DNA of 64,000 nucleotides from an uncultured Acidobacteriota bacterium (GCA_963750035.1 CAVVPE010000021.1:10795-74794); one strand, 5' to 3'; positions 13,599 through 56,138 are shown, counted from the first letter of the stretch. Notes: generated by a model not told the origin, from the letters alone. Numbers and translations: made by a program.

Positions 13599-15767
13599 AT
13601 GAGAACGGCTGCGCTCGTCGCTTACCGGGCAGCGTCCGACGTCGTCGGCAAGGCCGCGTTCTTCGTCGTGACGATCGTCGCGGCGCGCCGGCTCTCGTCC
13701 GAGGGGTTTGGCGTGTTCGCGCTCGGCACGACGATCGGATGGATGGCCGTCGTCGCCAGCGACTTCGGGTTGCAGATGCACCTGGCCCGCGCGGTCGCGC
13801 GCGCGCCTGACGCGGCCGGGTACGAATTGCGGAAGTGGCTGCGCGTGCGCGTCGTCCTCGCGGGCGCCGCGCTCGTCGTCGTGGCCATCTCCCTCGCCGC
13901 CTTCGACGGATCGCGGCACGCTCCGGCAATCATGCTCTTCGTCCTCGGGTATCTCGCGGCCGGCCTGGTCGAGTTCGTCCATTACTTTTATCGTGGCCTG
14001 TCGCGGACCGACATCGAGTCGACGCTGACGCTCTGGCAGCGGCTCGGGACGCTGGCCGCCGCGTGCATCGCGTTATGGGTGAGGCCCGACGCCGCAACGC
14101 TGGCCGCGGCCATGGTCGTGCCTCCCCTCGCGACCGCCGTGTACACGGTGCGGCTCGCTGCCGGCATGGGACGTGCTACTGCATCGCCTGGCCCCCCGGT
14201 CCAGTCACCGCTTTCGGAATTCGTCCGCGACGTGGCGCCGGTCGGCGCCGGCATCCTGCTCTCGGCGCTGTACTTCCGAATCGACGTGTTCCTGCTGGAG
14301 GCGTGGCAGGGCACGGAAACCGTCGGCCTCTACAATTCGGCGTTCCGAATCGTCGAGGCGCTCCGGCTCTTCCCGGCCGCGCTCCTCGCGGTGATGCTTC
14401 CACGCCTTGTCCGCGCGGCGAATCCCCGTCCACTCGTTCAAATGGCAGGCGCGCTGACGGCGTTCGGCATCGTGGCGGCGGTTGCACTCTGGCTCGCCGC
14501 GGACCGCCTGGTGCCGGCGCTGTACGGACCCTCATTTGCGGACGCCGTGCCCGCACTCCAGGTGCTCGCCGCGGCTTTTCCGCTGATGTCGCTGAACTAC
14601 GCGCTGACGTATCAGCTGATCGCGTGGAACGGGCACCGCGCGTACGCCGCGCTGTGCCTGGCGGCGCTCGTCTTCAACGTCGCGTTGAACGCGCGATGGA
14701 TCCCGGCCATGTCGTTGAACGGGGCGGCGTGGTCGACGCTCGCGACTGAAGCGCTGCTCACCGCCGGTTGCGCCGGCATCTTGAGCGCGGCGTCCCGCGC
14801 CGGCCGCGGCGATGGCGACGACATGAGGGCGGCCGCCAAGATCCTCCGGCATCCGGCGATTCCAACCGCCGGCCTGACGAGCGACGAGCTCGCCATCGCG
14901 CGCAGCGTCGTCTATGCCTCGCTGTTCGATTACCCGCTGACGCTGGCGCAACTGCGGCAGACGCTCATCGAATCGATCCAGACGCCGTCGCAGGTGCTCG
15001 CCACCTACAACGGGAGCGCGGCGCTGCAGGAGGCGATCGAGTTCCGCGATGGGTTCTTTTTCCCCAGGGGCCGCCCCGATCTCATCGAGGAGCGGCGGCG
15101 CCGCGAGTCGCGCAGCCGCACGTTCCTCCGCCGACATCGGCTCCTCCTGCAGCTCGCCTGCGCACTCCCCAGCGTGCGGATGGTGGCGCTGTCGGGCAGC
15201 ATCGCGCACCTGAATCTGGAAGGGACCGGCGACCTCGACCTGTTCATCGTCACGCGCGGCCGCCGCGTCTGGAGCACGACGGTCGCTGTCCTGATTCTCG
15301 CGAAGCTGATGCGGCGCCGTCGAATCGTCTGCGCCAACTTCGTCGTCGCCGACACCCGGCTCGTCCTCGAGCAGCAGGATCTGTTCGCCGCCAGCCAGGT
15401 GATCCACCTGAAACCGCTGATCGGACGAGATGTCTTCCTCCAGCTGCTCGACAAGAATCCGTTCGTGTTCCGTTTTTACCCCAACTTTCACGCGGCGGAC
15501 GCCGCATCGCTGCCGTTCCGGCCGAGCCGCGTGCTCGGCTGGATGAAGACCGTGCTGGAGACGGCGCTCGCGCCGGTCGCCCCGCTCGGCGAGCTGGTCT
15601 GCCGATCCGCGTACCGCGCGTACCTGCGCCGCCGGGCGGCGACCTGGCGGTCGCCCGACCAGGTCCGGCTGCAGGCCGACTGCCTGAAGCTCCATACGCA
15701 GAGCCACCGCCAGTCGGTCCTCGATCGACTGGAAGCGGGAATTTCAGATTTAAGATTTAAGATTTAA
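13599..15767 (+). CDS. Wzx/MOP-type flippase fused in frame to a Pol-beta-like nucleotidyltransferase-fold domain
   Basis: ORF 12918..15767 trimmed to ATG 13599 (MRTAALVAYRAASDVVGKAAFFVVTIVAARRLSSEGFGVFALG...), because the 5' extension is antisense to the ligase gene. About 400 aa are multi-TM. From the internal ATG 14823 comes a soluble domain with LSGSIAHLNLEGTGDLDLFIV (GS...DxD). The frame is intact. The last 10 codons (GISDLRFKI) lie inside the AT-rich repeat. Confidence 0.75.
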   Translation: MRTAALVAYRAASDVVGKAAFFVVTIVAARRLSSEGFGVFALGTTIGWMAVVASDFGLQMHLARAVARAPDAAGYELRKWLRVRVVLAGAALVVVAISLAAFDGSRHAPAIMLFVLGYLAAGLVEFVHYFYRGLSRTDIESTLTLWQRLGTLAAACIALWVRPDAATLAAAMVVPPLATAVYTVRLAAGMGRATASPGPPVQSPLSEFVRDVAPVGAGILLSALYFRIDVFLLEAWQGTETVGLYNSAFRIVEALRLFPAALLAVMLPRLVRAANPRPLVQMAGALTAFGIVAAVALWLAADRLVPALYGPSFADAVPALQVLAAAFPLMSLNYALTYQLIAWNGHRAYAALCLAALVFNVALNARWIPAMSLNGAAWSTLATEALLTAGCAGILSAASRAGRGDGDDMRAAAKILRHPAIPTAGLTSDELAIARSVVYASLFDYPLTLAQLRQTLIESIQTPSQVLATYNGSAALQEAIEFRDGFFFPRGRPDLIEERRRRESRSRTFLRRHRLLLQLACALPSVRMVALSGSIAHLNLEGTGDLDLFIVTRGRRVWSTTVAVLILAKLMRRRRIVCANFVVADTRLVLEQQDLFAASQVIHLKPLIGRDVFLQLLDKNPFVFRFYPNFHAADAASLPFRPSRVLGWMKTVLETALAPVAPLGELVCRSAYRAYLRRRAATWRSPDQVRLQADCLKLHTQSHRQSVLDRLEAGISDLRFKI

Positions 15768-15858
15768 GATTTCGATGACAAGATTTCGGCGACGTCCGAT
15801 CGAATGAAAATCTTGAAATCCTGAAATCTTAAATCTGAAATCTTAAATCTTAAATTCC
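15738..15858. repeat. 121-nt AT-rich imperfect palindrome built from inverted heptamer arrays (AGATTTA/C)
   Basis: Left arm GGAATTTC AGATTTA AGATTTA AGATTTA AGATTTC GATGACA AGATTTC. Right arm GAAATCT TAAATCT GAAATCT TAAATCT TAAATTCC. The outer ends GGAATTT/AAATTCC are complementary. The element contains the TAA stop at 15765-15767. Confidence 0.85.
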
Positions 15859-15882
15859 ATCGTCAGGTATACACTGTTCGTC

Positions 15883-16227
15883 GTGGGCGCTTCCGATCTC
15901 CTGAAAACCGCTTCGGCCGCGGCGCATGATGTCGTCACCAACACCGGGTCGGGCCGGGCATTCAGGAAGTTGGTGCGGGATTTCGTCGACGCGCTGGCAC
16001 GCGTGCCCGGCATTCCCGCGACGGAGTACTCGCCGTTGGAGATCGAGCAGCTGTCGTCGAAGGCCGAGCATGTCATCGCCGCGATCGAGCGGCATATCGA
16101 AGACCACGCCGACCAGGAGAGTGCCCGGCAGTCGCTGGGTGAGGAAATCGACGCGGTGCGGCACCAGATCAAGGAGCTCAACCGCTGGCGGCGGCATTAT
16201 CTTCAGTCGCCGACTAACTCACGCTGA
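15883..16227 (+). CDS. hypothetical protein, 114 aa, no family recognised
   Basis: Intact ORF with a GTG start. Its composition (MGASDLLKTASAAAHDVVTNTGSGRAFRKLVRDFVDALARV...EEIDAVRHQIKELNRWRRHYLQSPTNSR) is unlike the Arg/Ala/Pro-rich spurious frames. It is bracketed by AT-rich repeats. Confidence 0.5.
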   Translation: MGASDLLKTASAAAHDVVTNTGSGRAFRKLVRDFVDALARVPGIPATEYSPLEIEQLSSKAEHVIAAIERHIEDHADQESARQSLGEEIDAVRHQIKELNRWRRHYLQSPTNSR

Positions 16228-16231
16228 ACTC

Positions 16232-16274
16232 GTACACTTACACTCGAAATTTACAATTGAAATTCCAAAATTAC
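16232..16274. repeat. AT-rich short-period direct repeats (TACACT x2, then AATT-centred ~7-nt units)
   Basis: GTACACTTACACTCGAAATTTACAATTGAAATTCCAAAATTAC. It shares AATTTACAATT..GAAATT with the hairpin at 18184-18219. Confidence 0.55.
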
Positions 16275-16374
16275 TGCGTTCTTTTCACTCAGCCCTCAGC
16301 GCAACCGTCGGGTCGACGCGGACGGCCCGTCGCGCCGGCAGGCATGCGCGCCGAGAGGCGGTTCGAGGTGCCTC

Positions 16375-17268
16375 TCATACCAGGAGTTCCAGGGCGCCCG
16401 CCTCGACGTGCATCGACACCATTCGGTTCGGTGAACCCGGAAGAACCTCGTCGTCCACATGGATGTCAGTCGCGCCCTCGAGCGTTACCTGCTGCGCGCG
16501 CTGCGAGATCAGCGAAGGCGGTCGGTCGTCGCGCCCTTCGAGCAGGTCCCGTAAGTAGCGGTCGACCTCATCACGGTGTTCCTCGCCGGCCATGACCAGC
16601 CGGAACGAACCGTCAGACGGACTCGCGTCGTCCTCGAGGACGAGATTTGGACCGATTGAGCGGATATTGAGGACCTCGACGAGGAGAAACTCCCCGGTCG
16701 TCCGAACGCCGTCAGCGACGATGCTCCACTCCCGCGGCTGGAGCCGCACGAGCACTTTCCCGAACGTGCGAACGGCTTCTGCCAGCTTCGAACGCGCCGG
16801 GAGTTCATCTCCATCAGACCGCTTGTGCATATCGGCGATCGCGGCGGGAATCAGCCCGCTGCCGACGGCTTCCACGAAGTAGCGCCGGCCCCGGACGCCG
16901 TCCGCGACACCAAGGTCGAACGGCACGCGTCTGGCCGTCTCCCATCCTCTAATGACGTCGTCGATCGAGCCATGAGCCCCGACGCTTCTCGCAATGTTGT
17001 TGGCGGTACCCAGCGGCAGGATCGCGAGCGGAACCGCCTGGCGCGCCAGCATGCGCGCGGCAAAGGCGACCGTGCCGTCCCCTCCCGCCGCGATGACGAC
17101 GTCCGGGAGCGCTTCGAGCAGTCGCTCGAACTCGGTCTGCCGCTCGACGACGCAAACAAGGTCGTGGCCATGCTGCGCGACGACGTCGCGGATACGGTCG
17201 AGCGGCACCCCGTCGCCCGCGTTCCCGTTCCAGAAGAGCGATACTCTCACGCGTGCGCACCAATCCAA
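16375..17268 (-). CDS. diacylglycerol-kinase-family lipid kinase (YegS/BmrU-like)
   Basis: Intact ORF with [18 protein letters not shown] and [17 protein letters not shown] motifs. Start is TTG 17268 or GTG 17250. Confidence 0.85.
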
Positions 17269-17319
17269 GAATCACGCCGAAGCTGCAACTGGCCGCCGGT
17301 TTGCACTACGAGGTGACCG

Positions 17320-18161
17320 ATGCGAATTCTGGTGTCGAACGACGACGGGATCTACAGCCCGGGAATCTCGGTACTTGCCGAGGTCGCGTCAGAGTTCGGC
17401 ACCGTGCGCGTGGTCGCGCCGGACGTCGAGCAATCGTCGATGGGGCACGCGATCACGGCCACACGGCCGCTCTCGTATCGACCGACGCACATCGGCAATC
17501 TCACCGCCTGTCGCGTCAACGGAACACCAGCCGACTGCGTGGCGCTTGGCACGTATCACTGGGAGCAGGTGGACGTGGTGCTGTCCGGGCTCAACCTCGG
17601 ATTGAATCTCGGCAATTCGATCTGGCACTCAGGCACGCTTGCCGCGGCGAAGCAGGCGGCGCTGCTGGGTGTGCGCGGCGTGGCGCTGAGCGCTCCGGCA
17701 GGCATCGAACCGGACTTCGAACACTTGAAGCCGTGGATCCGGCGAGTGCTCGACGTACTGTTGACGGACTCGACATTACTGCTCGTCAACGTGAATTTTC
17801 CGCGCGAGCCCAGAGGCCTGGTGTGGACGCGCGCTTCCGTGCGTCGTTACGACGGCAAGATTGTGCCGACGAAAGATCCGCTCGGGCGCGAACTGTTCTG
17901 GTTCACGGTGAGCCCCTCGAAGGCGCCGAAGAAGGCACCGATCGATGGGCCGCCGAGCAGGGCTGGGTCTCCCTCACTCCGCTCAGGCTTGATCTGACCG
18001 ACGAAGCGCTGCTCCGTGCCGTCCGCGCGAGTCGGCCCCTTGACGAAGCGAGGGCGGCGGCGGTTTCACCACCGAAGTCGTCCGAGCAGGCGGCCGAATC
18101 GGTTCGCGAAGACGAGGCCGCCGCGTCGATCCCGGTGAACCACGGTGCTTCCCGCCGCTGA
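17320..18161 (+). CDS. surE: 5'/3'-nucleotidase SurE, one apparent frameshift near 17909
   Basis: [22 protein letters not shown]...[16 protein letters not shown]...[23 protein letters not shown] (ORF 17320..17997). The C-terminus [34 protein letters not shown] continues in the frame of ORF 17253..18161. Confidence 0.85.
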
Positions 18162-18183
18162 ATGCGCGCGGGGACGGCGGCGC

Positions 18184-18219
18184 GCAATTTACAATTTACA
18201 ATTTGAAATTGTAAATTGC
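18184..18219. terminator. AT-rich perfect hairpin (CAATTTA heptamers) between convergent genes; candidate bidirectional terminator
   Basis: GCAATTTACAATTTACAATTT G AAATTGTAAATTGC. Positions 18192-18204 pair with 18206-18218 (13 bp), and slipped registers are also possible. It lies between the surE stop (18161) and the VWA stop (18228). Confidence 0.7.
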
Positions 18220-18227
18220 AGATCTCT

Positions 18228-19259
18228 CTACGGCGTCGCCGCCGTGCGGGCCAGCACCGTGCCGCTGCGCCGCGTCAGCTTCACGGCCAGCTCCGCCCAT
18301 GTGAACGGGCCTTCGGGCGCTTCGACGAGCAGGACGTAATGGCCGGCCAGCGCGCCGGTCAGGCGTTGCACGGCCCGGTCTGGAAAATGGAACGAGCGCT
18401 CGTAGAACCCGCCGGTTTCCTCCGACACCGACTGGAGCCCGACTTCGAGCGAGTGATAGTCGGCCTGCGTGACGTCGATCGAGAAGACGGCGGCACGCGC
18501 GCGCTGGAGCGCGGCCAGCGCTTCGTCGTAGCCCTTCTCCATCATCACGCCCAGGGCGGTGTAGCGGCCAAAGCCGTGGCCGAACAGCACGATCGATTTC
18601 GAGCCGGGCAGCGGCTCGAGCGCCTCCCCCATCAGCAGCAGGGCTTTCTCGATCGGATACGCCTTCCGCCCTGCCGCCTGAGTCAGGCGGCGCGTCAACG
18701 AAATCTCGGCGGTCGCTTCGCCGAGCGCCTTCGGCCGCTCGAGCAGGAGACCACGCTCCAGGATCCGCCGGATCTCTTCACGATCGCCGGTGAAGTCGGC
18801 CCAGATCTTCAGGTGTGAATCGAACGAGACGACCGCAACCCGGTCGTCGGGGCCGAGCGTCTCGAGAAACGTCTTCGCCCTGAACAGCATCCGCATCAGG
18901 CCGACGATGCGGCTCGGCTCGAGATCCTTCTGGAAGAGAAACACGATCAGCCGGCCCCGCGGCAGGCTTCCTTCCGGAAAACCTGGCGCGATCACCGACG
19001 ACGAGGCATCGGCGCCGGCCCCGACCCACACCGCCGACTCGACGCGAACCGGCTTGCCGTGGATCTTGACGGCGAAGTCGTCGGCGGTCAGATCCTGAAT
19101 CGCGCGGCCCATGCCATCGAGCGCCCGCACGTCGACGACGATTCGCGCGACGTCGACCCGGTCGGTGAACTGCGGCTGCTGCGGCGCCTGCGCGAGCGTC
19201 ACTACGGATGGACCGCGCCCACCAGGAGGATGAGGCGCTATTCCACAAGATGCAACCAC
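18228..19259 (-). CDS. VWA-domain protein (acidobacterial VWFA-related type)
   Basis: Intact ORF: DVARIVVDVRALDGMGRAIQDLTADDFAVKIHGKPV...RLIVFLFQKDLEP...DRVAVVSFDSHLKIWADFTGDRE...SIVLFGHGFG...AAVFSIDV. The N-terminal signal peptide is unclear; RLILLVGAV is in another frame and is followed by VVTLAQA. Confidence 0.8.
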   Translation of the reverse strand: MVASCGIAPHPPGGRGPSVVTLAQAPQQPQFTDRVDVARIVVDVRALDGMGRAIQDLTADDFAVKIHGKPVRVESAVWVGAGADASSSVIAPGFPEGSLPRGRLIVFLFQKDLEPSRIVGLMRMLFRAKTFLETLGPDDRVAVVSFDSHLKIWADFTGDREEIRRILERGLLLERPKALGEATAEISLTRRLTQAAGRKAYPIEKALLLMGEALEPLPGSKSIVLFGHGFGRYTALGVMMEKGYDEALAALQRARAAVFSIDVTQADYHSLEVGLQSVSEETGGFYERSFHFPDRAVQRLTGALAGHYVLLVEAPEGPFTWAELAVKLTRRSGTVLARTAATP

Positions 19260-19336
19260 GAAGATCGCGAAGACTCGAAGAAATCCAGATCCGAAGATCA
19301 GGTTCTTCGCGTCTTCGTAGCCTTCGTGGCTTGCAT
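19250..19336. repeat. 87-nt imperfect hairpin built from CGAAGA / TCTTCG units (8-9 nt period)
   Basis: ATGCAACCACGAAGATCGCGAAGACTCGAAGAA...CCGAAGATCAGGTTCTTCGCGTCTTCGTAGCCTTCGTGGCTTGCAT. The outer 14 nt are near-perfectly complementary. A TTTTTT run follows on the plus strand. Confidence 0.7.
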
Positions 19337-19358
19337 TTTTTGCGACTCGTAGCGAGCC

Positions 19359-22270: not shown

Positions 22271-22285
22271 AAGTGAATCATCTCT

Positions 22286-22320
22286 GCCGTTCGTCGTTCG
22301 GGCGTTCGTCGTTCGTCGGC
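22286..22320. repeat. CGTTCGT heptamer array between the leader terminator and the cysD start
   Basis: GCCGTTCGTCGTTCGGGCGTTCGTCGTTCGTCGGC. The first 23 nt are identical to the reverse complement of 56116-56138. Confidence 0.65.
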
Positions 22321-22351
22321 CAAAAACAAAAAAGCCCGGGTTGCCCCGGGC
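22321..22351 (-). terminator. intrinsic terminator in the cysD leader
   Basis: The minus strand reads GCCCGGG GCAA CCCGGGC followed by TTTTTTGTTTTTG, ending about 50 nt upstream of the cysD ATG. Confidence 0.7.
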
Positions 22352-22476
22352 TTCAGGTCTCTTCTTTGTGTTGGGTGTCGCTTACTGGATATTCGTCAGC
22401 GAACCTGGACCTGTCGCACGGGGACCATCGGGGTCCTTGTACAACAACAGGCGCAGGTCGCGGCTCCGAACATCTG
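22325..22476 (-). ncRNA. candidate cis-regulatory leader RNA (attenuator/riboswitch-like) or small RNA upstream of cysDNH
   Basis: About 150 nt lie between a sigma70-like promoter and the terminator. The segment contains the hairpin GGACC-CCGAU-GGUCC (22422-22436). It also has two GACCUG copies (22454-22459 and 22354-22359, the latter abutting the terminator) that can each pair with a single CAGGUC (22408-22413). No known riboswitch class was recognised. Confidence 0.4.
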
Positions 22477-22482
22477 AACCCT

Positions 22483-22513
22483 ATATTAAGCGGGTCCGGG
22501 GGCAGGCTGTCAA
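22483..22513 (-). promoter_or_regulatory. sigma70-like promoter candidate (TTGACA, 18-19 nt spacer, TAATAT)
   Basis: The minus strand reads TTGACAGCCTGCCCCCGGACCCGCTTAATAT. The spacer is 1-2 nt longer than optimal. Confidence 0.4.
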
Positions 22514-22670
22514 ATCCCATTGATACTGTTACTTAAGGCCCCGCCGGAGGCGCCCTTGCCATCGGCACGCGAAATCGAGCCGGTCTTCGGCGGAAGAGTC
22601 TGCGTGTGAGGCCGCTTTCGTGTGCCGCAGGGGGCGAGAAAACCCGGGATTCCGCGTGAGCAGCGCTGGT

Positions 22671-33126: not shown

Positions 33127-33144
33127 GCGGACCTAAAGGTCCGC
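33127..33144 (-). terminator. hairpin GCGGACC-TAAA-GGTCCGC, 1 nt after the HD-GYP gene stop
   Basis: Read directly from the sequence. No clear U tract. Confidence 0.45.
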
Positions 33145-33145
33145 A

Positions 33146-41089: not shown

Positions 41090-41234
41090 TGTCGTGCGCG
41101 CTGTGAAGCCGATCGCGGTCGCGCGCGATATGTTCCGAGTTCTCCACGACGCGATTGTGAACCTGCGACAAGCGCTCGTTGAGGCGCCGCATACGCTCCA
41201 GCTGTTCCTCGAGAAATGATCCGTCAAAATCCGC
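41028..41234 (-). CDS. small hypothetical coiled-coil protein (68 aa) with basic tail
   Basis: MADFDGSFLEEQLERMRRLNERLSQVHNRVVENSEHIARDRDRLHSAHDNVRRHQTHDYPQPAKRKRKR. It is in frame with the addA track ORF but lies beyond addA's expected end, and its composition is protein-like. Confidence 0.4.
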   Translation of the reverse strand, partial: ADFDGSFLEEQLERMRRLNERLSQVHNRVVENSEHIARDRDRLHSAHDNVRRHQTHDYPQPAKRKRKR

Positions 41235-41325
41235 CATAGCCAGGGTCCCGCTTTTCCTGACTTTCGATCCAGCGAATCCCGTGCCAGCGGCCGAATGACT
41301 GCCGTAGTGGAGCGGGTCTGCTGAG

Positions 41326-44300
41326 CTACACGCGACGACGAGCACGCCTGACGCGGGCAACCCCGTCGCCTGCCGGATCGCGGACACGTAAAAGCCGATC
41401 TGCCGCCGATAGCGCTCCTCGCCGTCCGCAGCCAGCACGCGATCGCTCTTGTAGTCGACGACGACCCACGCGCCGCCTTCCTCGAACGCAAGGTCGACGA
41501 TTCCTTCGACAACGGTGCCGTCGGGCATGCGGCAGGTCACCGGTGTTTCGCGCCGGCACGCCCCGCGGCGCTCGGCGGCTTGCGCGCGCGCGATGATGTC
41601 GTGGCCCAGCACCTTCGCGGCCGCGCGAGCGGCCGCCGCGGCATCGGCGTCGCTCAGGCCGAGCACCCGAGCTTCGACGTCGGCGAGCGCCTCGAGCTGG
41701 GCAGGCGGCGCATCGAACGGCGCCTGCGACAACACGACGTGGACGAGGGCCCCAAAAGCCGCTCCCCCGCCGCGCTCCGCGTCGCCTGGCGCGGCGATGT
41801 TCACGACGGCGACTTCGATATCGAGCGGCTCGGCGACCGCTTGCTCGTCGGCCCACTCCTTCGCCGTTCGGACCGCCACGCTTGGTTCAGAGCCGGCCGC
41901 GCGCGCCTCCGCGCGGGCCAGGCACCAACGGTCGTAGCGGCCACGGCCGCTGGCGATGACGTCACGCGGCACGTCCTTGACGATCAAGTCGTCGCGCCGA
42001 ACGCCGAACAGCGTCTTGGCGCCGAGATTCAGTCCGCCGCCGGGACCAGGATCCCACCAGACGACCGAATATCCGCCGTCGACGAAGAGATGCGCGCCGG
42101 GCGCGACGGTCGAGGGCGCCGCCGTCTCCTCGTTCGGGCGCTGCAGCACGGTGTCTTTCGATCGAAACGCCGGACACCTGGCGCCCCGCTCCGGGCTGCG
42201 CCGCAGGTCGAGCGGCGGATACACCGCGCGATTGAGCGGCGAGAACCAACCGCCCTCCCAGGGTTCGTCCCCGAGCGCTGGAACGACGAGGAGATCGCGC
42301 GCCCGCGTCGCCGCGACGTACGCCAGGCGGACGCCTTCCGCCTGGTCGCGCGCCACCTCCTCGACTTCGTGATCGTGCAGTTCGTGCGGCGACCAGCCGC
42401 CGAGCTTCATCGCGCACAGGCCCGCTTCGGCATCGAGATAGCGGCTCGCGTCGCCCCGGTTGAGCCGGCACGTCAGGTCGGCCAGGATGACCACGGGAAA
42501 TTCGAGGCCCTTCGCCTTGTGGACCGTCATCAACCGCACGCCGTCGCTGCTTTCTTCGAGGATCGGCGCCTCGGCCGCCTCACGCTCGGACGCGGTCCGC
42601 AGCTCGTCGATGAACCCCCGGAACGAAATACCGCCGGCCGCTTCGTACTGGCGTGCCAGCTCCGCGACGTGGAGGACGTTCGCCAGCGCCTGCTCGCCGG
42701 CCGGCCGGAGGATGAAGCCCACGTGAGCGCGCGTTTCGGCGAGCAGGCGTCCGATGGTGTCGGCAACAGGCCGATAGTTGCGCCGCCGATGAAGCTGCTG
42801 CAGCAGGCGCAGAGCGTCGGCAATCGGCGTCAGCTGCGTCGTGGGCTCGCCCGTGAGCGCCAGGTCCTGGCCCGAGTTGCCGCCGAGCTCTCGCGGCACG
42901 CGGAACGGGTGCAGCGAGCCGAAGCGGTGGCGGAACTCGAGCAGCAGCTGATCGTCGACGGCAAAGAGCGACCCCCGCAGCGTCGCAAACACCGACAGCT
43001 CGTCGTCCGGCCACTCAATCGCCGCCAGCGCCGCGCGAATCGTTTCCACTTCTTCCCTGTCGTGAAACGCCTTGCCGCCGACGAGCAGGTGCGGGATGCC
43101 GCGCGCCTCGATCGCGTCGACGTATCTCCGGGTGACGTCTTCGCCGAAGCTCACGAACCGCCGAAAGAGGACGGCGATGTGCCGCGCCGCCAGGGGGACG
43201 CGGCGTTCAGCGCCGCCCGCCTCGCGCTCCACGACCTGCCAGCCGTTCTGTTCGTCGGTCAGCCACGCGATGAAGGCGCCGACGGCGTCGGGAAGCGACG
43301 CCTCGATCGCCTTCGCCGACGCCTTCAGCGGTCCCCGGGCCGAATACGGCCTGGGCACCGGCAGCGCGACGATCGCGGGTTGCGAGGGATCGTCGGCTCG
43401 ATGTGGCGCCAGGGGAACGTAGTCAGCCTGCAGCGTGCGCTCGTCGCCGGTCATGTCCGCGGCAAACGCGGCATTGACGAATCGCTGGATCGCCGGCACG
43501 CTCCGGTAGCTCGTTCTGAGCTGCAACACGCGCCCGCCCGACGAGCCCAGCTGACGTGCAACGCGCCAGTACGTCGCCACGTCGGTGCCGCGGAACCGGT
43601 AGATCGCCTGCTTCGGGTCGCCGACGATGAACAGCTTGCCCGGGACGGTCGTCGCCGCGGTCCACTCGGTCGCCGCCGGATCGTCGGCGGCCAGGAGGAG
43701 CAGGATTTCAGCCTGGATCGGATCCGTGTCCTGGAACTCGTCGACGAAGATGCGCGTGAACTTGCGCTGGAGATGTCCGCGGACCTCGGCGTCGCTCCTG
43801 ATGAGATCGCGCGCGCGCACCAGCAGATCGGCGAAGTCGAGCGACCCCGCCGCGGTCTTCAGCGCCTGGTATCGGGCGGTGGCACCCGCGAACTCCTGCT
43901 GCAGGCACGCGGCCAGGTCGGCATCCGCCTCCTTCCTGAACTGTTGCAAGTCGGCAAACAGCGCGTCGCGGCCCGCGAGCACCTCGGTTCGCGTGACGTC
44001 CTTGCCGAACTTGTAACCGCTCCCTTTCCGCGTACGAGAAAAGCCGCGGTCGCGCACGAGGTCGACCAGGCGCGCTTCCCAGCCGTCGTAATCGCGCCGC
44101 CCGAACGATGCCTCGAGGCTGATCTGCCGGCTGAGGCGGCGGACGCCGTCGGTATCGATGAAGAGGTTGTCGCGGCGCGACGACGCACGTGCCGTGAGCT
44201 CTGCGAGACGATGCAGATCGGCCACGAGGCGATCGATCTCGCTCTCGCGGGCGAATGCGGGCCGGCGCCACGGCGCTGGAAAGTCGCGCCACTCGGCGAG

Positions 44301-44865
44301 GGCGCGGCCGGCATTGCGCAGCCGATCGATCGGGCCGCCCGCGTCGCCGCCCCCGAACGAGGGCGCGGCCGTCCGCCGCAGCGCGCGGCGAAGGCCTTCT
44401 GGCGGTTCGCGCAGCGCGTCCTGCAGCCAGGCACGAAAGGCGCGATCGTAGAGGCGGTTCGCCTGCGGCTCGGTGAGGACGGCGAACAGGGGATCGACGT
44501 GCGCTTCGACGGGGCGTTCGCGCAGCAAATCGGCGCAGAAGCCGTGGATCGTGTTGACGTGCGCTTCCTCGAGCTTCTCGAGCGCCGCGTCGAGCCGCTG
44601 GCGGACGACCGGCCTCGTCCGCCTTCGCACGCTCGTCCTCGAGCTGCTCGCGCAGCCGCAGCTTCAGCTCACCGGCGGCCTTCTCGGTGAACGTCACCGC
44701 GACGATCTCGATCATCGTCGCGCGCCCGCTCGCCAGCACGGCCAGGATGCGGTTGACGAGCTCGGTCGTCTTGCCAGTGCCGGCGGCAGCCTCGACGACA
44801 AGCGTGTCGTCGAGGTCTTCAGCGATCGCGCGGCGGGCGTCGGCGTCGGTGATCACAGTGGGCAT
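41326..44865 (-). CDS. addA: AddA-type UvrD-family helicase with C-terminal PD-(D/E)XK nuclease, frameshift near 44605
   Basis: ORF 43708..44898 N-terminus ([37 protein letters not shown], from ATG 44865) joins ORF 41028..44630 ([77 protein letters not shown]). The likely true stop is TAG 41328-41326 in a neighbouring frame, after ...ASGVLVV. Confidence 0.85.
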
Positions 44866-44925
44866 GTCGAACGTGCCAGTGAAGGTCAAGACACGCACGG
44901 AAACGCGAAAACACGAAACCGAAAA

Positions 44926-45150
44926 GCATTAACACGGACACGAACGGCTGCGACCAGCGCGGCCGGCGCAGCCGGCCGCTGCTCGGATGAGAGGCGCCGG
45001 ATTCCACAAACCATCTCATCTCACGCGGTTTGTGAATCCGGCGTCTCTCCATCCGAGGCGCTTCGCGGCGCTGGTCGCAGACGGACACGTACGGATTCTG
45101 AACGCCGTAGCCGTACGTGATCCGTCCGTGTCCGTCGTGTCCGTGTTAGC
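44926..45150. repeat. 225-nt nested inverted-repeat element in the addB-addA spacer
   Basis: Three concentric arm pairs: GCATTAACACGGACACGAACGG / CCGTCCGTGTCCGTCGTGTCCGTGTTAGC; CTGCGACCAGCGC / GCGCTGGTCGCAG (perfect 13 bp); GGATGAGAGGCGCCGGATTCCACAAACC / GGTTTGTGAATCCGGCGTCTCTCCATCC. Local hairpins are GGCCGGC-GCA-GCCGGCC and ACGTACGG...CCGTACGT. It is preceded by CGAAA-type repeats (44893-44925). Confidence 0.75.
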
Positions 45151-45165
45151 TTTTCACGCACAGGC

Positions 45166-48100
45166 TCATCGGATCGCCCTGAGCGCGTGCAGGTCCGCGA
45201 GGCGGTCAACGGCCTTGCGCGCGACGCGCTCTTCTTCGCGCGGGCCGCACACGGGGCGGAAATCGCACCATGTGCACGCACGCTCGTCGGGAGCAGCGGG
45301 CAGGAACCCCTGCTCCACCGCGCGGTCGACGATCGTGAGGACCTCGAGGCCCTGGCCGCGCGTGTAGTCGTTGATCGGGATCCTGTGATCGGCGAATCCG
45401 CCGACCGTCGTGCAATAGAACAACCGGCCCTCGATCACCTTCTTGCCGAGCCCCTGCTCGAGCGCCATGCTGTACAGCACCGGCTGCAGCACGGCGCCGC
45501 CACCCACGATCAGGTCGGGGTTCGAGCGGTTCCTGCCGGTCTTGTGATCGGTGATCCGAAGCACGTCGAACTGCCGGTGGTGTTCGACGAGATCGACCGA
45601 TCCGCGAAGGACGAAGCGCCCGTCGACGATAATCGGATCTGGCAGGCTCCGCGGGTCGCGGCCTTCGTCGCTCAGCCCGAAGCTGAACTCGAAGAACGCG
45701 GGCTGCCAGTCTTCTTCGTCGGCGAGCTTCTGCACCCAGATGCCGAGATCCCGGCGCAGGTCGTCGATTTCGTCCCGCCAGACGCGATCGATGGCCGGCG
45801 CCAGATCTTCGGCGTACGCGCCGGCCACCCGGTCGAGCACCGCGTTGATGGCGAGCACTGCCTCCGGCAGCGTGGCACGCGTGACGGGCAGCGCGTTCCG
45901 TGCCTCCAGTTGACGGTAGAACTCGGCCTGGGTGCGATGAAAGAGGCTGCCCCGCGTCAGCGGATCCATGCGGACGATCGGCTGCGGCTCGTCCCACGGC
46001 TCGAGCCGGTGAATCGTCGCGAGCAGGAACTGGTACGGACAGCTCGCATAGCGCTGGAGCGCAGACAGCGAATACGGCCGCTGCCCCAGCCGGTGCGCCT
46101 GCAACGCCCGTCGCACGCCGTCGGTCGACGCCATGCAGGCCGTCGCTCGACGACCATGCCGGGCGTCCCCTGGCCCAGCGGCTGATCACCGACCGGCGCA
46201 GCGCCTCATTCAGGCCGAGCAGGTAATGCGCGTGACCCTTGACTGACGCCGGATCTCTGGAGTCGAGCAGCGGCTTGAGCGACGACAGATCGTGTTCGAG
46301 GTCGTCGATGGCGCGATCGGGATCGGCCGGCGCCGGCCACGCCAGGCTCGCGCCGGCTTCCTGCGCCGCGTCGGCCGCCAGCACGCGGTGGTCCGGGATC
46401 GCCCCGGTGATCGCCCGCATGACGTCGAGCGCATAGAAGGACGGGACCCGCGCGCGCGTTTCCGCCACGTCGAGGCGCGGGTACGAGAGGTACAGGCGCT
46501 CCGACGCGGCGCCAATCGCAATCTTGAGGAGAAGGCGTTCGGCCGCCGCGCGATCGTCCTGGCGCGCGAGCCGGGCGTCCGGAAGCCCGTCGCGCGCCGC
46601 GTCGAGGAGCAGCGGATCCTCGCGCGGCCGCTGCGGAACGACCCGCTCGGCGAGGCCGGGCACGAAGACCACCCGGAACGTTCGGCCCCGCGCCTGGAGC
46701 GGCGTCCCCACGAACAACCGTCCGTAGCGGCGAAGAGGCGGCTCCCAGTCGAGCGTGACGAGACGATCGTGCAGGACATCGCGCGCTTCCTCGATCGTCA
46801 CCGGCCCGACGCCGGCCATCGGCCGCAGCTCCGCCAGTGTCTGCAGCACCCGCGCGGGACGGCGCAGCACGCGTCCGGCCAGTTCTCCGAAGCGATCGAT
46901 CCACTCGCCCCACATCGCCTCATCGGGCCAGTCGGCAAGCGCGTCGATGATCGGCAGCGCGAACTGGCGCAGGTGCGCGAGGTTCCGCAAGTCGCGCTCG
47001 AAGCGCGCAATGCGTGCCGACTCGGGCTCCTCGCGTTTCAGCTCGGCGATCCGATATCGGAAGTCGGCCGCCAGCCCATCGAGCCTGCGCCGCCACCGCC
47101 CCTTGCCGTCCGCGCGGCTGCGTCCCCCGACGACCGCCGATTCGACGATCAGTTCCTCCCATTTCCATGGCGATCGCAGCGTGCCGGCCACCACCGCTTC
47201 GTCGTCTGAATCGGGTGGGTCCGGTTCGACTTCGGCGTGCCGTCTCTGCGGCTTCGCCGTCGTCGGGATGCTGCCCGCGTCTGCATCGACGCCCGGCCAC
47301 GGAAACACTTCGTCGCGGGGCCAGGTCTCGGGGCTCGGTGCTCGGTGTTCGGTGCTCGGCGCTTCCCCACCTGCCCCACCTGCCCCACCTGCCCCACGCC
47401 TGCCCTTCCCGCCCCGGCAATCTGCGGCACTTGTCCAAGCGACAGGTACTCGTCGAAACGCCTCGCGGAGAGGCCTTCGCACGCGCACGCCAGCAGCGCG
47501 ACGAAGGCGCGGCCCGCGGGATCGGGTCGACGGGTGCCGCGATCGAAGTACGCGGGCACGCCGCCTCGCGCGCACGCATGCTCCAGCAGGCCGAGGTACT
47601 GCCGCGGTGTCCGAAGAAAGACAGCCATCTCATCGAACGGAACGCCACGAGCGGCTTCGTCGAGCGCGCGCCTGACAATCTCCACGGCCTCGCGTCCCTC
47701 GCCCGGCGCCGAGAACAGGCGGACATCACCCGCGCGCGACCGCGCTGCCGGGCGATCCGGCGTGAAGACGAAACGACGGAGGTTGGCAAGATCGGTGTGC
47801 GGTGCGGCAGGATCCTGCGCGATGTCGACCACGGCGGTGGGCGAAAGGCTGCGCAGCGCCTCGAGCGCCGACTCGTCACCGTCCGGGACCGTCGCCAGCA
47901 CCGCTGGCGAGCGTCGGACGAGCGCGCCAACGAACGCGCGTTCGGCGCTCGAATCGAGCGTGACGTCGAGCAGCACCAGCGGCAGCGCCGCCCACCGGAC
48001 GTGCCCGTCGCCGCACGCCCGCGCGGCAAGCCTGAACAGCTCGGCGCGATCGGTGATCGACGTCTGCCGCAGCTGTCCTTCGATTCGCGCCAGGAGGCGG

Positions 48101-48543
48101 CCTACGTCGCGCACCGCGCGGTTACGGTCTTCCAGATCGGCCGCGGCCACGCCGGCCAGGCGAAGCTCGTGAACCGTTCGCGCCAGCGCTTTTGGAAAAC
48201 CCGGCATCCTGGCGACCGGCTCGAAATACTCCATCTCGCCCGCGGCGGCCGCATCGAAGACCGCGCGGGCCGCCGCCGCTTCCGCGCCCGCCTGCGTACC
48301 GGGCATGCGCCGGGCGCCGGCGAGCTGGACGGCGGCCGACCGTGCGGCCAGCTCGGTGAGCGAGACGCGGGTAATCCCGAACGTGGCGCCGTGGTCCACG
48401 GCGAGGCGCCGCGCGAGATCGTCTGCCGCGCCGCGCGACGCGCCGATGATCACGACTTCGGCCGGCGATGGATGCGACTGGAGAAAATGGCGCGCCTGGT
48501 CGAGCCGCGCCGCTGCGGAGGTCGACGTGATGATGCGCAACAT
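45166..48543 (-). CDS. addB: AddB-type PD-(D/E)XK nuclease subunit with Fe-S cysteine cluster, frameshifts near 47350 and 46140
   Basis: ORF 47149..48543 (MLRIITSTSAAARLDQARHFLQSHP...), the middle part in the 45206..47575 frame (WKWEELIVESAVVGG...FVPGLAERVVPQRPREDPLLLD...SFYALDVMRAITG), and ORF 45166..46134 (YSLSALQRYASCPYQFLL...SVDLVEHHRQFDVLRITDHKTG...ERACTWCDFRPVCG). Confidence 0.8.
47333..47402. repeat. tandem repeats inside addB: GCTCGGT x4 (7 nt) followed by CCCCACCTG x4 (9 nt)
   Basis: Read directly from the sequence. On the coding strand they encode a low-complexity linker (GVGQVGQVGQVG... or GAGGAGGAGG, depending on frame). One addB frame switch falls here. Confidence 0.7.
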
Positions 48544-48553
48544 GAGGAGCCTC

Positions 48554-48573
48554 GTCCGGACGCCTTGCCGGAC
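48554..48573. repeat. GTCCGG...CCGGAC hairpin just upstream of the addB start (possible third copy of the REP-like hairpin)
   Basis: GTCCGG ACGCCTTG CCGGAC. A second hairpin, GGCAGC GCTT GCTGCC, lies at 48584-48599. Confidence 0.4.
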
Positions 48574-48605
48574 ACCGCGCGACGGCAGCGCTTGCTGCCG
48601 AAACT

Positions 48606-48650
48606 GGAATTGGGGAATCGGGAAATCAGGATCGGTCAGGAACTTGAGGA
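48606..48650. repeat. GGAAT-centred 7-8 nt direct repeats in the addB/GT4 divergent spacer
   Basis: GGAATTG GGGAATC GGGAAATC AGGATCG GTCAGGAAC TTGAGGATTGAG. Confidence 0.4.
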
Positions 48651-48999
48651 TTGAGCTGACTCAGATTTCAACCGCCGCGTTCCGCGCCTCCAGTTACCTA
48701 GATCGCTCGATTACCCGCTCATCAGATTCCAGGATGGGATGGTAGCACGCGAGCGTGACAGGGCAGGTCACTGTGCTAGTGTTCCGGCGGCGTGATTTGC
48801 AGCGTGAATCCCGAAGCGCCGCGCCCGACTGGCAAGGCGCGAAGAACGAGCTTATTGGGCATAGTGAGCGATGAGCAAGCAGCCACGGGATGCCCCTCCA
48901 GGAATTATGTTGCGAATCATGCGACCGGGAGCGAGGCGCGACGAGCCAGCGAGTGCGAGTAGCGCGCGCGAGCGGCGGCGAGAGCCTCGGGAGACTACG

Positions 49000-50248
49000 A
49001 TGCCGCACGCATTGGTGACGGCGTTGATCGATCTCACGATGCTGTCGACGCCGAGCCGGCAGAGAGGCATCGGCCGATACGCGGCAGACCTCGCCTGCGC
49101 ACTGGACGACACCAGCGTCGACGCCGCCCGCGCCCCCGACGGCGGACCTGAGAGGTCCGCCCTACGAGGCTGGCCGGATGTCCAGGTTCGTGCCATCGAG
49201 CGGTTCGACTGGATCGGTCCAGCGACGATTACCGGCCCGCGCAGCGCTGTGCGCCGGATTGCGGAGGATGCCCGCCGCTTTTCACACGCGCAGTGGGCCT
49301 ACCGCGTGCGCCTGCGGCTCGCGTCCATCGTCCGCAGGAGCCGCGCCGACGTCTTGCACTAACACCTATCTCGACGCGACGCCGCTCGGACCGCTGGGGT
49401 GCCCGCGCGTCGTGACCTGTCACGATCTGATTGCGATGAAAGCGCCCGACCATTACGGCGGCTGGCGGGACGGGTGGCGCTGGGGGCGCCGGCGTCTCGA
49501 CGCGAGGCGTTATCACTCTGCCGATCACATCATCGCGGTCAGCGCCGCGACCGCGTCCGATCTCGTCGCGCTCCTCCGCATCCCGGCTCGCAAGATCACG
49601 GTCGTCCACCACGGCGTCGACACGGTTCGCTTCTCCGCCGCGCCGGCCGGCGACGACGAAGACCGTGCGGCGACGGCACGGGTTCGGGGACCGCAGGTAT
49701 CTGCTGTTCGTCGGCGCCGCAGACTGGCGCAAGAACGCCGAGGGGATGCTGCGCGCGCTCGCGATCGTTCGCCGGCGTCCGGGCACCTCGGACATCGTGC
49801 TCGCATGGGCGGGGAGGATCGACTCGCAGGATCTCGCCGCCGTTCGTGCGCACGCGCGGGCGGCCGCGGTGGCTGACGCGGTCATGATGCTCGGCTACGT
49901 GCCGGATGGCCATCTGGCGGCCCTGATGCGCGGAGCGCTCGCGCTGCTGTTCGTGTCGCGCATCGAGGGTTTCGGGTATCCGCTCGTCGAGGCGATGGCG
50001 TGCGGCTGTCCGGTGATTGGCAGCAACCGGCCGGCGATTGTCGAGATGGCCGGCAATGCCGCCTCGCTGGTCGATCCCGAGCGTCCGGAAGCGATCGCCG
50101 AGGCGATTGGGGCGCTCGCCGGCGACGTCCCTCAACGGCGCCTGCTGTCCGAGCGCGGCGTCGCGCGGAGTCAACACTTCAGCCTTGCGCAGGATGGCTC
50201 AACAGACGGCGGACGTGTACCGGCAGATTGCCGCGGGCCCGTCGCTGA
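49000..50248 (+). CDS. GT4-family glycosyltransferase, at least 3 frame switches
   Basis: ATG 49000: MPHALVTALIDLTMLSTPSRQRGIGRYAADLACAL (ORF 48871..), VVTCHDLIAMKAPDHY...ADHIIAVSAATASDLVALLRIPARKITVVHHGVD (ORF 49178..), YLLFVGAADWRKNAEGMLRAL...LLFVSRIEGFGYPLVEAMACGCPVIGS (ORF 49665..), and the tail MAQQTADVYRQIAAGP (ORF 50017..). Confidence 0.75.
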
Positions 50249-50249
50249 C

Positions 50250-51187: not shown

Positions 51188-51264
51188 TCCGGTGACACGC
51201 CCTGCTTGGCGCGGTCCCGCCAATCGATGCAGGCGAGTGAGAGCGGGTGGCGGGCGGGGGTGAA

Positions 51265-53625: not shown

Positions 53626-53638
53626 GACCGTCAGCGTC

Positions 53639-54403: not shown

Positions 54404-54549
54404 CTCCCTTTAACAGCGTGGCCCGAACGTGTCCGCTGCCGGAGTCATAGCCCGAGCACAACTCTCATGCCGTCGAGGGCCCCGCATCGCAAGGGCATGT
54501 TCTGGCCCGACTGGTCGATGCGTCGGTGTCCCTCTCGTCACTCTCGAAT

Positions 54550-56052
54550 CTAGCCCGACTGCAGAATCGCGGTCCTTGAATCGGACGTCCGGCTAAAGCC
54601 GGACGCTGCGTCAGGCACGAGCGATCTCGCTTCCAGGAGCGCGCGGCGATCGACCAGCCAGACGACGGCTGCATAGACGCTCAGTGAAACAACCGCGGCC
54701 GCCGCGAACGAGAGTGGACCGTCCACTCTCGACGCAAGCACGAACCGTCCGGTGGCTGCGGTCAAGCAGGCGGCCGCCCATGGAACTCGGAGCCGCCTCC
54801 AGAACCGCGCCTCTGGCAGCATCCTCCGCAGCACCTCGGCGATCACGATGTTGCCAATGACGACGTGCGACGCGTATCCGATGGCGAAGCCGAGCGTGCC
54901 GCCGAGTGCCGTGCCGATTGGGACCGCGATCCAGGTAATGACCGTCCACAGCAGCGCCACGCGCGCGAACACACCTGGACGGCCGATCGCATCGAGCGCG
55001 GACGCGACCAGCGGCGACAGGAAGCCAATCGAAATCGCCACGGAAAAGACAACCAGCAGCGGGACCGCCGGTAACCACTGCTCCGAGAACACGTAACGCG
55101 TAAGTGGCTCGCCGAGGCCGATGAACAGCCCGACACAGCCGCAGGTGACGAACGCGCACAGGTGAATCGCGCGGCCGAGCGACTCGCCGACGAGCGCGCG
55201 GTCGTGCTGCAGCCGGGCGAACAGCGGAAAGCCGACGGTCCGCAGCGTGTCCACCATCTTCAGCGGAAAGTAAGCGGTCTGCCGCGCCCAGTTCAGGTAG
55301 CCGACCGCGGTGACGCCGAGCTCGCGTCCGCCCCAGAACGGCGTCACCGCGTCGTTGACGAGGCTGATGACGTTGCGCGACTGCTGCGCCAGGCCGAAGC
55401 GCATCAGCGGCCGGACCTCCGCCCAGGCGAACGTGGCCCGCGGGCGCCAGCCGGAAACGGCATAGGCGATCACGGTCACCAGGCTTGCGCGTCCGATCAC
55501 GGCCGCAGCCAGCGACCACACGCCCCAACCCAGGAGTGCGAGGACGACAGCCACGCCGTAGAAGGCCGCGCCGCCGGCGACGTCGATCAGCGAGAGTGCC
55601 CCGAAGCGCAACCGCCGCTCGAGCAGCAGCATTGGCGCGATGCGCAAGCTGACGAGCACGAAATCCACGGCCATGACCTGCATCAGCAGCGCCGAATCAG
55701 GCGGCAAATCGGGCCAGACGACCGGGATCGCTCCAGCCGCGGCGGCGACCGCCGCCATCAGGACAAAAGATGCCGCGAGCTGGAGATAGAAGACGCTGGA
55801 AAGCTGTCGATCCGTCGGCGGCGTCGCCTGTCGCACCAGCGCGCCGCCGACGCCCGTGTCCCCGAAGAACGCGACAATCGCGAGCACCGACTGGACGATG
55901 GCGAAGACGCCGAATTCGTGCGGCGTCAGCAGCCGCATCAGTGCGATGCTGCCCCCGAACACGACCACTTGCATGACGACCGTGCGCGACACCAGCGCGA
56001 GAATGCCCCGCGTCGCCAATCCGTTCAGAGTGGAGAGATCGATATCATTCAC
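54550..56052 (-). CDS. Wzx/MOP-type oligosaccharide flippase
   Basis: Intact 500-aa multi-TM ORF with GTG start (VSRTVVMQVVVFGGSIALMRLLTPHEFGVFAIVQSVLAIVAFFGDTGVGGALV...). The last ~20 codons run through a REP-like hairpin. A TGA in a neighbouring frame at 54613-54611 may be the true stop. Confidence 0.85.
   Translation of the reverse strand: MNDIDLSTLNGLATRGILALVSRTVVMQVVVFGGSIALMRLLTPHEFGVFAIVQSVLAIVAFFGDTGVGGALVRQATPPTDRQLSSVFYLQLAASFVLMAAVAAAAGAIPVVWPDLPPDSALLMQVMAVDFVLVSLRIAPMLLLERRLRFGALSLIDVAGGAAFYGVAVVLALLGWGVWSLAAAVIGRASLVTVIAYAVSGWRPRATFAWAEVRPLMRFGLAQQSRNVISLVNDAVTPFWGGRELGVTAVGYLNWARQTAYFPLKMVDTLRTVGFPLFARLQHDRALVGESLGRAIHLCAFVTCGCVGLFIGLGEPLTRYVFSEQWLPAVPLLVVFSVAISIGFLSPLVASALDAIGRPGVFARVALLWTVITWIAVPIGTALGGTLGFAIGYASHVVIGNIVIAEVLRRMLPEARFWRRLRVPWAAACLTAATGRFVLASRVDGPLSFAAAAVVSLSVYAAVVWLVDRRALLEARSLVPDAASGFSRTSDSRTAILQSG
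54587..54604. repeat. REP-like hairpin GTCCGGC-TAAA-GCCGGAC
   Basis: It has the same arms as the hairpin at 40059-40077 (GTCCGGC-TGAAC-GCCGGAC). Both are followed by GCT. Confidence 0.55.
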
Positions 56053-56073
56053 CGCAGGCTCATCCTAGCATCC

Positions 56074-56138
56074 TGTCGTTCGACGTTCGTCGTTCGTCGG
56101 GATCTCGTCGAACGTCGAACGCCCGAACGACGAACGGC
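56074..56138. repeat. inverted arrays of CGTTCG(T/A) heptamers filling an 87-nt intergenic spacer
   Basis: TGTCGTTCGACGTTCGTCGTTCGTCGGG ATC TCGTCGAACGTCGAACGCCCGAACGACGAACGGC. Positions 56077-56089 pair perfectly with 56109-56121 (13 bp), and alternative slipped registers exist. Confidence 0.75.

Follow-up and report, generated by a model that had tools for sequence, protein, structure and literature searches.

Tandem-repeat-armed hairpins in a Vicinamibacterales genome and their association with PF05635 and GxxExxY gene cassettes

In a stretch of 64,000 nt from an uncultured bacterium (hereafter the window, meaning this whole stretch), nine loci with short tandem repeats had been listed in a preliminary description, which raises the question of what kind of element these arrays belong to. 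The host is a member of the Vicinamibacterales (Acidobacteriota) represented by a metagenome-assembled genome (MAG), here called G000 (3.5 Mb, 25 contigs, 67% GC), in which the window corresponds to positions 10795-74794 of contig C21 (C21:10795-74794). The closest relatives of its CysD protein were found in further Vicinamibacterales MAGs with 80-89% identity, and these relatives ruled out Burkholderia-type simple sequence repeats, an assignment that had been guessed from the GC content. The reading favored here, to which we assign a probability of roughly 0.6, is that the hairpins of the window are gene-less members of a lineage-wide class of repeat-armed foldback elements, of which cassettes carrying PF05635 or GxxExxY genes constitute the full-length form.

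Tandem arrays were called with Tandem Repeats Finder (TRF), whereby the list for the window includes scores of at least 30 and the genome-wide count uses scores of at least 40, and dinucleotide shuffles within 150-nt blocks served as the genome-wide null. In the whole of G000, 158 arrays of period 7 and 93 arrays of period 8 were found compared to approximately 2.7 and 5 in the shuffles, i.e., both periods are 20 to 60 times commoner than in shuffled sequence. Genes were called with a combined codon and dicodon model that covers 76% of the genome and was used for coarse classification only; it superseded a caller using solely the GC content of third codon positions, which covered 42%. By this classification 200 of the 251 arrays are located outside called genes, i.e., in 24% of the genome. 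An inverted copy of two units is present within 150 nt for 133 of the 251 arrays, compared to 1 of 251 in a reversed-only control, and 170 loci show an inverted-repeat score of at least 36, a value exceeded by fewer than 5% of random genomic sites. Each element consists of two tandem arrays in inverted orientation, the repeated word being 7-8 nt long, or 9 nt in some of the cassettes described below. The suggestion of a genome-wide class of structured intergenic elements, enriched in arrays of 7-9 nt over shuffled controls, was thereby borne out by the large excess of periods 7 and 8 and by the inverted partners, and the class is present in relatives as well and extends over the phylum.

It had also been stated that every site carries a different unit, which turned out not to be the case as five units of the window are dispersed over the genome in families with 23 to 92 loci each. 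The 251 arrays reduce to 73 canonical units, with AGATTTA, CAATTTA, CGTTCGT and CACGAAAA being the dominant ones. CGTTCGT occurs at 92 loci (6 in shuffled sequence), CAATTTA at 24 (0 in shuffled sequence) and CGAAGACG at 23 (1 in shuffled sequence); AGATTTA was found at 54 loci and CACGAAAA at 29, with shuffled sequence giving 0 to 6 across the five window units. For GCTCGGT 39 loci were counted compared to 18 in shuffled sequence. These families were defined by unit, since single-linkage BLAST clustering, which was dropped, placed 274 loci in one cluster. The AGATTTA/C loci are copies of one dispersed repeat of approximately 100-125 nt, present at about 45-54 loci, with the conserved outer ends TGRAAATTT and AAATTYCA, arms of approximately four units each in which a conserved A/C pattern leaves two fixed mismatches, the inner boundaries TTGGCG and CGCCAA, and a variable center of 30-50 nt that is often palindromic about TTGGCAG. 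Other families, such as those of GGAACTGA, GGAGAGTT, GGAATTA, CACGAAAA and AATCGGGT, show the same design with conserved ends and partly conserved interiors, and several dispersed word families exist per genome.

PF05635 is the '23S rRNA IVS protein' family (IVS: intervening sequence), the members of which are relatives of Avd. A first cassette was found while the AGATTTA loci were listed: the arms at C3:41197-41819 enclose an open reading frame (ORF; C3:41347-41769) whose product of 140 amino acids belongs to the TIGR02436/PF05635 four-helix-bundle family and is related to PDB 2rld. Each of the five PF05635 genes in G000 is framed by inverted tandem arrays, with a separate word in every case (AGATTTA, CAATTTA, GGGGCTG, GGTTCGC and a CTGAGGAA-like word), and AGATTTA and CAATTTA are shared by cassette arms and window hairpins. 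This link of the arrays to PF05635 and GxxExxY genes was absent from the preliminary description. For the order, 30 loci from approximately 20 genomes together with the loci of G000 resulted in 33 PF05635 cassettes, and an inverted-repeat score of at least 36 was used as threshold (null 99th percentile 32, null maximum 38 in 400 trials). As ORFs read through the arrays, the arms were placed by anchoring on stop codons instead of using the envelope coordinates of hidden Markov models. In the order 23 of the 33 cassettes reached the threshold, as did 16 of 26 PF05635 loci sampled across the phylum, where approximately five more have visible arms, so that in the pooled set 39 of 59 usable loci are located between inverted arms. 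These arms have periods of 7, 8 or 9 and an inner distance of approximately 420-560 nt; the downstream arm starts a few nt after the stop codon in the best-scoring cassettes, with offsets of up to approximately 150 nt overall, and in 27-29 of the 39 the purine-rich or G-rich strand forms the upstream arm. No PF05635 cassette and no window hairpin was found in rRNA, all loci being located between protein-coding genes, and a search of the whole window against Rfam at the gathering threshold gave no matches and hence no rRNA.

A second protein family shares this architecture. Inverted repeat arms enclose two of the three GxxExxY (PF13366/TIGR04256) loci of G000, including a decayed gene at C3:56713 that is bracketed by CACGAAAA arms; the GxxExxY gene at C14:4576 is intact. 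A further ORF between inverted arrays (C3:354179-354606) appears by eye four-helix-bundle-like at its N-terminus (MNPRAEDLQERTLTFALR...) and later looks frameshifted; it has no match in NCBIfam. This ORF is interpreted as a decayed cassette and may represent a stage on the way from a cassette to a gene-less hairpin.

The association is also phyletic. In samples of 30-200 kb per genome, taken away from known cassettes, the PF05635-positive genomes contained 82 arrays in 1.48 Mb (arrays in 19 of 24 genomes) and 0.71 Mb of the PF05635-negative genomes, which are scattered over many families, yielded a single marginal array (in 1 of 16 genomes). Presence of arrays and presence of PF05635 are thus associated with a Fisher p = 1e-5, and within the order arrays correlate with PF05635 with a Spearman rho of 0.61 (p = 0.004), kinship being ignored in both values. 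The association of arrays with the cassettes of PF05635 and GxxExxY is thereby both physical and phyletic. When the cassette proteins were placed in a maximum-likelihood tree, the five cassettes of period 9 grouped together in a single clade (support 100/99), a clustering matched by none of 500 label shuffles, and sister proteins from different genera have similar words. Judged from these sequences, the repeat period goes with the protein phylogeny. Since the arrays undergo turnover between congeners, as described below, this retention of word and period suggests either a constraint that is tied to the protein or a cassette that is inherited as a single unit.

In the window, the folding of each locus was scored against 200 dinucleotide shuffles (z), and the congeners G002 (approximately 94% identity) and G003 (approximately 92%), at some sites also G001, served for syntenic comparison with contig C21. 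Five of the nine listed loci are true hairpins with tandem-repeat arms and fold better than the shuffles. The remaining four (regions 16232-16280, 22284-22322, 47316-47400 and 48596-48665) are not hairpins and comprise two solo arrays, a coding repeat and a locus that represents noise. The first hairpin, at 15738-15858, is a 121-nt member of the AGATTTA/C family with an inverted repeat of 36 nt (94% complementary) and TRF period-7 arrays at 15741-15772 and 15808-15855; the region 15735-15861 folds with -50.8 kcal/mol (z -8.6). A flippase-like ORF upstream runs into its left arm and has its stop codon at 15765-15767. At the syntenic sites this element is longer in G002, collapsed to 47 nt in G003 and absent in G001.

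A degenerate array of the CAATTTA type (16238-16275; TRF period 13, score 40) stands alone at the convergent junction 16227/16375, and the region 16232-16280 shows no hairpin fold (z +1.2). Fuller AATTTACAATTG arrays occupy this site in G002 and G001 and none is present in G003. A CAATTTA-family hairpin (18168-18242) is located between the convergent stops 18161 and 18228, containing a perfect 14-nt inverted repeat within a 37-nt repeat and CAATTTA x2.9 at 18185-18204 according to TRF; the region 18166-18244 folds with -35.5 kcal/mol (z -4.9), and the PF05635 cassette at C5:158701 has arms built from the same unit. These two CAATTTA-type repeats, the solo non-folding array and the hairpin, form the edges of a 2-kb segment (16208-18237) that is absent from G003 and carries two genes, one for a DAGK/YegS-like lipid kinase (16375-17268, minus strand) and one for an ORF of unknown function with 302 amino acids. 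G002 has an extra insertion of 3.4 kb at approximately 16340-16355, and a second DAGK_cat paralogue (C3:338828-339736) has AATTAGG hairpins on both flanks.

Upstream of the minus-strand gene 18228-19259, a hairpin armed with CGAAGA(C/T)N octamers is found at 19256-19329 (region 19255-19332: -40.2 kcal/mol, z -6.7; TRF period-8 array at 19259-19281). The CGTTCGT x4.3 array in the cysD leader (22288-22318; TRF score 46) is a solo array without hairpin fold in the region 22284-22322 (z -0.5); it is kept in G002 and replaced by CGTTCTG/CGTTCTA x5 in G003. A canonical GC-rich hairpin, AAAGCCCGGGTTGCCCCGGGCTT, adjoins it at approximately 22335-22352 and is kept in G002 and G003 while the array changes. 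The same word recurs in the CGTTCGT/CGAACG hairpin at 56075-56136, with an inverted repeat of 16 nt (94% complementary), TRF arrays at 56075-56099 and 56106-56136 and a fold of -35.1 kcal/mol for 56070-56140 (z -2.7). This hairpin follows directly after the stop of a CDP-alcohol phosphatidyltransferase gene (56140) and precedes the start of a flippase gene (56052), and as both neighboring genes are on the minus strand it is intra-operonic. The version in G002 is longer and different, and GTCGTTC arms flank a PF05635 gene in G003 (locus L132).

The arrays that had been listed separately at 44893 and 45122 belong together as outer arms of a single compound palindrome of approximately 270 nt (44893-45160), in which CACGAAAA-type and GTCCGTGT-type outer arms enclose nested inner hairpins. 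The region 44885-45165 folds with -160.4 kcal/mol (z -11) and TRF reports arrays at 44896-44918 and 45111-45144. The element is located between the stop of an addB-like gene (45166) and the start of an addA-like gene, and three partial homologues exist elsewhere in the genome (C22:95285, C25:57533 and C25:19756). As G002 and G003 hold only approximately 42 nt at this site, it represents an insertion or deletion difference. The adjacent addA-like gene seems to be split over two overlapping frames (41028-44898), with UvrD-helicase profile positions 5-74 in the ORF 43708-44898 and positions 62-267 in the ORF 41028-44630, possibly due to a frameshift or sequencing error, and the addB-like gene (45166-48543) is likewise recognized only in part. 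Within the addB-like frame on the minus strand (47316-47400), GCTCGGT x5.3 and CCCCACCTG x3.7 form direct repeats (TRF arrays at 47327-47363 and 47365-47397) that were not classed as hairpin (z -1.6); the sole recognized domain near these repeats is a C-terminal PDDEXK_1, and G002 and G003 have a shorter, differing version of the region. Finally, the GGGAATC-like stretch at 48606-48640 is no better than chance, with no TRF row at a score of at least 30 and a fold of 48596-48665 that is indistinguishable from chance (z -0.3), and GGGAATC is not enriched genome-wide (11 loci compared to 8 in shuffled sequence).

Further repeats of the genome are of other types. A separate classical system of repetitive extragenic palindromes (REPs) and REP-associated tyrosine transposases (RAYTs) is present with about 96-135 copies of GTAG-headed REPs, which form hairpins of the type GCGGACCT..AGGTCCGC..CTAC, e.g., at 33127-33149 and 49142-49165 of the window, and a Y1_Tnp gene (C19:48233-48559) is flanked by two GTAG-headed REPs. 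Strong tandem repeats of 24-30 nt with the consensus CCCCAGATGATCTCGTCG... and TRF scores of approximately 100 are located at 35116-35272 inside a large minus-strand ORF (35091-36923) and probably encode a repeated peptide motif. In the first 12 kb of the window (1-12000) the GC content is 72-75% compared to approximately 67% elsewhere and the codon-model gene caller is weak, pointing to unusual codon usage or to frames that overlap.

With respect to genes, the median distance between a hairpin and a 3'-facing gene end is 11 nt, compared to 57 nt for 5'-facing ends. Loci were counted in spacers of all three arrangements (83 convergent, 224 tandem and 41 divergent), in agreement with the earlier observation; convergent spacers are over-represented (24% of the intergenic loci compared to 13% of the intergenic length) and divergent spacers under-represented (12% compared to 22.5%). 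The gene-less forms gather a few nt behind stop codons. The array excess, the inverted partners and this 3'-end position together show that the class is real and non-random. Such a position, and likewise the convergent enrichment, would also be expected of host-selected 3'-end elements acting as bidirectional terminators or as barriers to 3'-exonucleases that stabilize the upstream mRNA. In line with this, the stems are very stable, one and the same slot is occupied by a repeat-armed hairpin or a REP in different species, and most of the comparable repeats in Xanthomonas are transcribed (PMC4692102). We nevertheless regard a host 3'-end role as unlikely. A U-tract was not found, the mean number of T in the 10 nt downstream being 2.4 in sense and 2.6 in antisense orientation with at least 5 T in only 9 of 90 loci, and many of the repeat-armed stems are AT-rich. 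Some elements are intra-operonic, such as those at the addB-addA and 56140/56052 junctions, or lie in divergent spacers; separate canonical terminators exist (approximately 22335-22352), and many junctions in congeners have neither the element nor a substitute. As a U-tract is missing and some sites are within operons, plain intrinsic terminators are unlikely, and the terminator function suggested in the preliminary description was not supported. The folding energies of sense and antisense strand do not differ significantly (p = 0.25), and the strand bias in G·U pairs is weak at best, with 161 in sense versus 124 in antisense for orphan hairpins (p = 0.03) and 48 versus 62 for the cassettes.

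The comparison with congeners revealed a fast turnover, comprising gain and loss of units in both arms, replacement of units, and gain and loss of whole elements. Apart from the window sites described above, the element at C21:126263 has 4+4 arm units in G000 and approximately 3+3 in G002; at C21:76627 a full element in G000 is opposed to a 16-nt arm remnant or palindromic seed, TGAAATTTCA, in G002 and to a GTAG-headed REP in G003; at C21:168723 the element is missing without replacement in G003, where the spacer is 5 nt long. Many orthologous junctions in congeners contain neither a hairpin nor a substitute. The assumption that the arrays are prone to slippage is supported by unit numbers that vary between congeners, often in both arms together. 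It could be argued that the elements are a mere mutational by-product, i.e., palindromes behind stop codons that grow by replication slippage and intrastrand template switching and have no mobility, partner or function. Orthologous sites that hold an array while unit number or sequence change (CGTTCGT to CGTTCTG at 22288), the joint shift of both arms at C21:126263, the short seed or remnant TGAAATTTCA in G002 opposite a full element in G000, and the failure to find a target-site duplication would all fit this explanation. It is improbable as an account of the whole class, however, since each family comprises 23-92 loci at which the word, its outer boundary and its inner boundary are identical, the 270-nt compound element has three homologues elsewhere, sister genomes that have a similar GC content without encoding PF05635 are essentially free of arrays, and word and period track the phylogeny of the cargo protein. 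Artefacts of assembly or binning deserve almost no weight: tandem repeats can be mis-assembled and G000 is 59% complete, but the arrays span no more than 25-130 nt and are located inside contigs, syntenic elements occur in independently assembled congeners, inverted arrays of period 7 or 8 are found in unrelated MAG loci of other studies, and the gene-in-loop architecture was confirmed in the sampled GTDB genomes.

Several points weigh against the reading of the hairpins as gene-less members of a cassette class. The co-occurrence statistic ignores phylogeny and rests on only 30-200 kb per genome, and the PF05635-positive genomes G009, G019 and G028 have no arrays in 60-100 kb. The completeness of G000 is just 59%, and the crude gene calls reach only 76% of it. 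Neither a target-site duplication nor a precise empty site was found in five comparisons of G000, G002 and G003, the 'empty' site in G002 holding the 16-nt arm remnant; movement is therefore not demonstrated, and growth or decay in place fits equally. As there is no clear sense-strand G·U bias, selection on an RNA stem is unsupported. Moreover, neither the PF05635 nor the GxxExxY cargo protein is known to have an activity.

If the hairpins and cassettes nevertheless form one class, the short hairpins may derive from or depend on the gene-bearing cassettes, in analogy to the relation of MITEs (transposable elements of the miniature inverted-repeat type) to insertion sequences or of REPs to RAYTs. 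Co-transcribed elements would form RNA stems of 25-60 bp that could be processed by RNase III as for IVS, and the elements would then be tolerated selfish or near-neutral DNA and not host terminators. By analogy with REP/RAYT and with the NTS repeats and their nuclease Ssn, it can tentatively be proposed that pentamers of PF05635 and, in parallel, GxxExxY proteins with PD-(D/E)XK fold might read the word arrays sequence-specifically, the hundreds of gene-less hairpins being targets in trans. Each paralogue might in this word-reading model recognize its own word of 7, 8 or 9 nt, and both parts taken together seem possible but rather doubtful. If true, the bacterial heptamer excess, the 23S IVS and two very large uncharacterized protein families would belong to one system. 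PF05635 and GxxExxY are very large families without known function, and in the Acidobacteriota the arrays are almost confined to genomes bearing PF05635, by which the unexplained excess of 7-base repeats in bacteria would gain a candidate protein partner. The two open questions, the origin of the heptamer excess and the role of PF05635 and GxxExxY, thereby merge into one, i.e., whether the protein binds or cuts its own word array. In practical terms, the elements offer hypervariable markers for telling close strains apart, and they also cause assembly breaks and mis-called stop codons.

A literature search returned no published link of heptamer arrays to PF05635 or GxxExxY genes, whereas several known systems share individual features with the elements. 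The short tandemly repeated repetitive (STRR) heptanucleotide sequences of cyanobacteria, reportedly described by Mazel et al. in 1990, are likewise short intergenic tandem heptamers with several unit families per genome, but they belong to other taxa (heterocystous cyanobacteria), have other units and form mainly direct arrays. The TAACTGA arrays of Beggiatoaceae are similar as abundant intergenic heptamer arrays that are common across phyla; these are direct repeats just upstream of start codons, predicted to be unstructured, with one inverted case (PMC4679880). An equivalent in a GC-rich genome, of which none had been thought to be described, exists in Xanthomonas campestris and X. axonopodis, which contain 70-75 inverted GGGAATC heptamer pairs capable of forming stem-loops, mostly within 50 bp of stop codons, rarely between divergent genes and mostly transcribed (Rehm et al., 2015; PMC4692102). 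The same study found few inverted pairs in Nostoc, cited repeats of Calothrix and noted that heptamer repeats are over-represented in many bacterial genomes (2007) without detailed literature or explanation (PMC4692102). The Xanthomonas pairs resemble the elements described here as inverted heptamer arrays of a GC-rich genome near stop codons with few copies in divergent spacers. However, they comprise one G-rich unit that was read as G-quadruplex former and was not linked to a gene cassette (PMC4692102), whereas in G000 GGGAATC is not enriched and dozens of unrelated words, many of them AT-rich, exist per genome with periods of 7, 8 and 9. X. campestris also encodes an S23p four-helix-bundle pentamer (PMC4990558).

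Systems that pair a small gene with a dispersed repeat provide a second line of comparison. The single-strand GIY-YIG nuclease Ssn recognizes dispersed NTS repeats, which occur in hundreds of copies around genes (PMC11893778); the pairing of small gene and dispersed repeat is similar, whereas protein fold and repeat architecture differ. With regard to MITEs, which have terminal inverted repeats and a target-site duplication, the arms act as long terminal inverted repeats and neither a duplication nor a clean empty site was seen in the five comparisons; the longer elements with matching arms encode PF05635 or PF13366 and no known transposase. REP/REPIN-RAYT systems resemble the elements in that a genome contains short intergenic palindromes by the hundreds and that matching repeats flank a small gene, whereas the repeat-armed hairpins have no GTAG head, have arms of tandem words, and are associated with PF05635 or PF13366 genes instead of a Y1 transposase. 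In the 23S rRNA intervening sequences of Coxiella, Leptospira and Brucella an S23p/PF05635 ORF is located in the loop of a long stem, a 28-bp stem is cut by RNase III, and the IVS are suspected to be selfish or mobile (PMC4990558). In contrast to IVS, which are inserted in rRNA (helix 25/45), the elements described here lie between or behind protein genes, their stems consist of tandem words and most copies contain no ORF; the gene-less hairpins of the window do not have the ORF-in-loop layout of the IVS, whereas the PF05635 cassettes share it.

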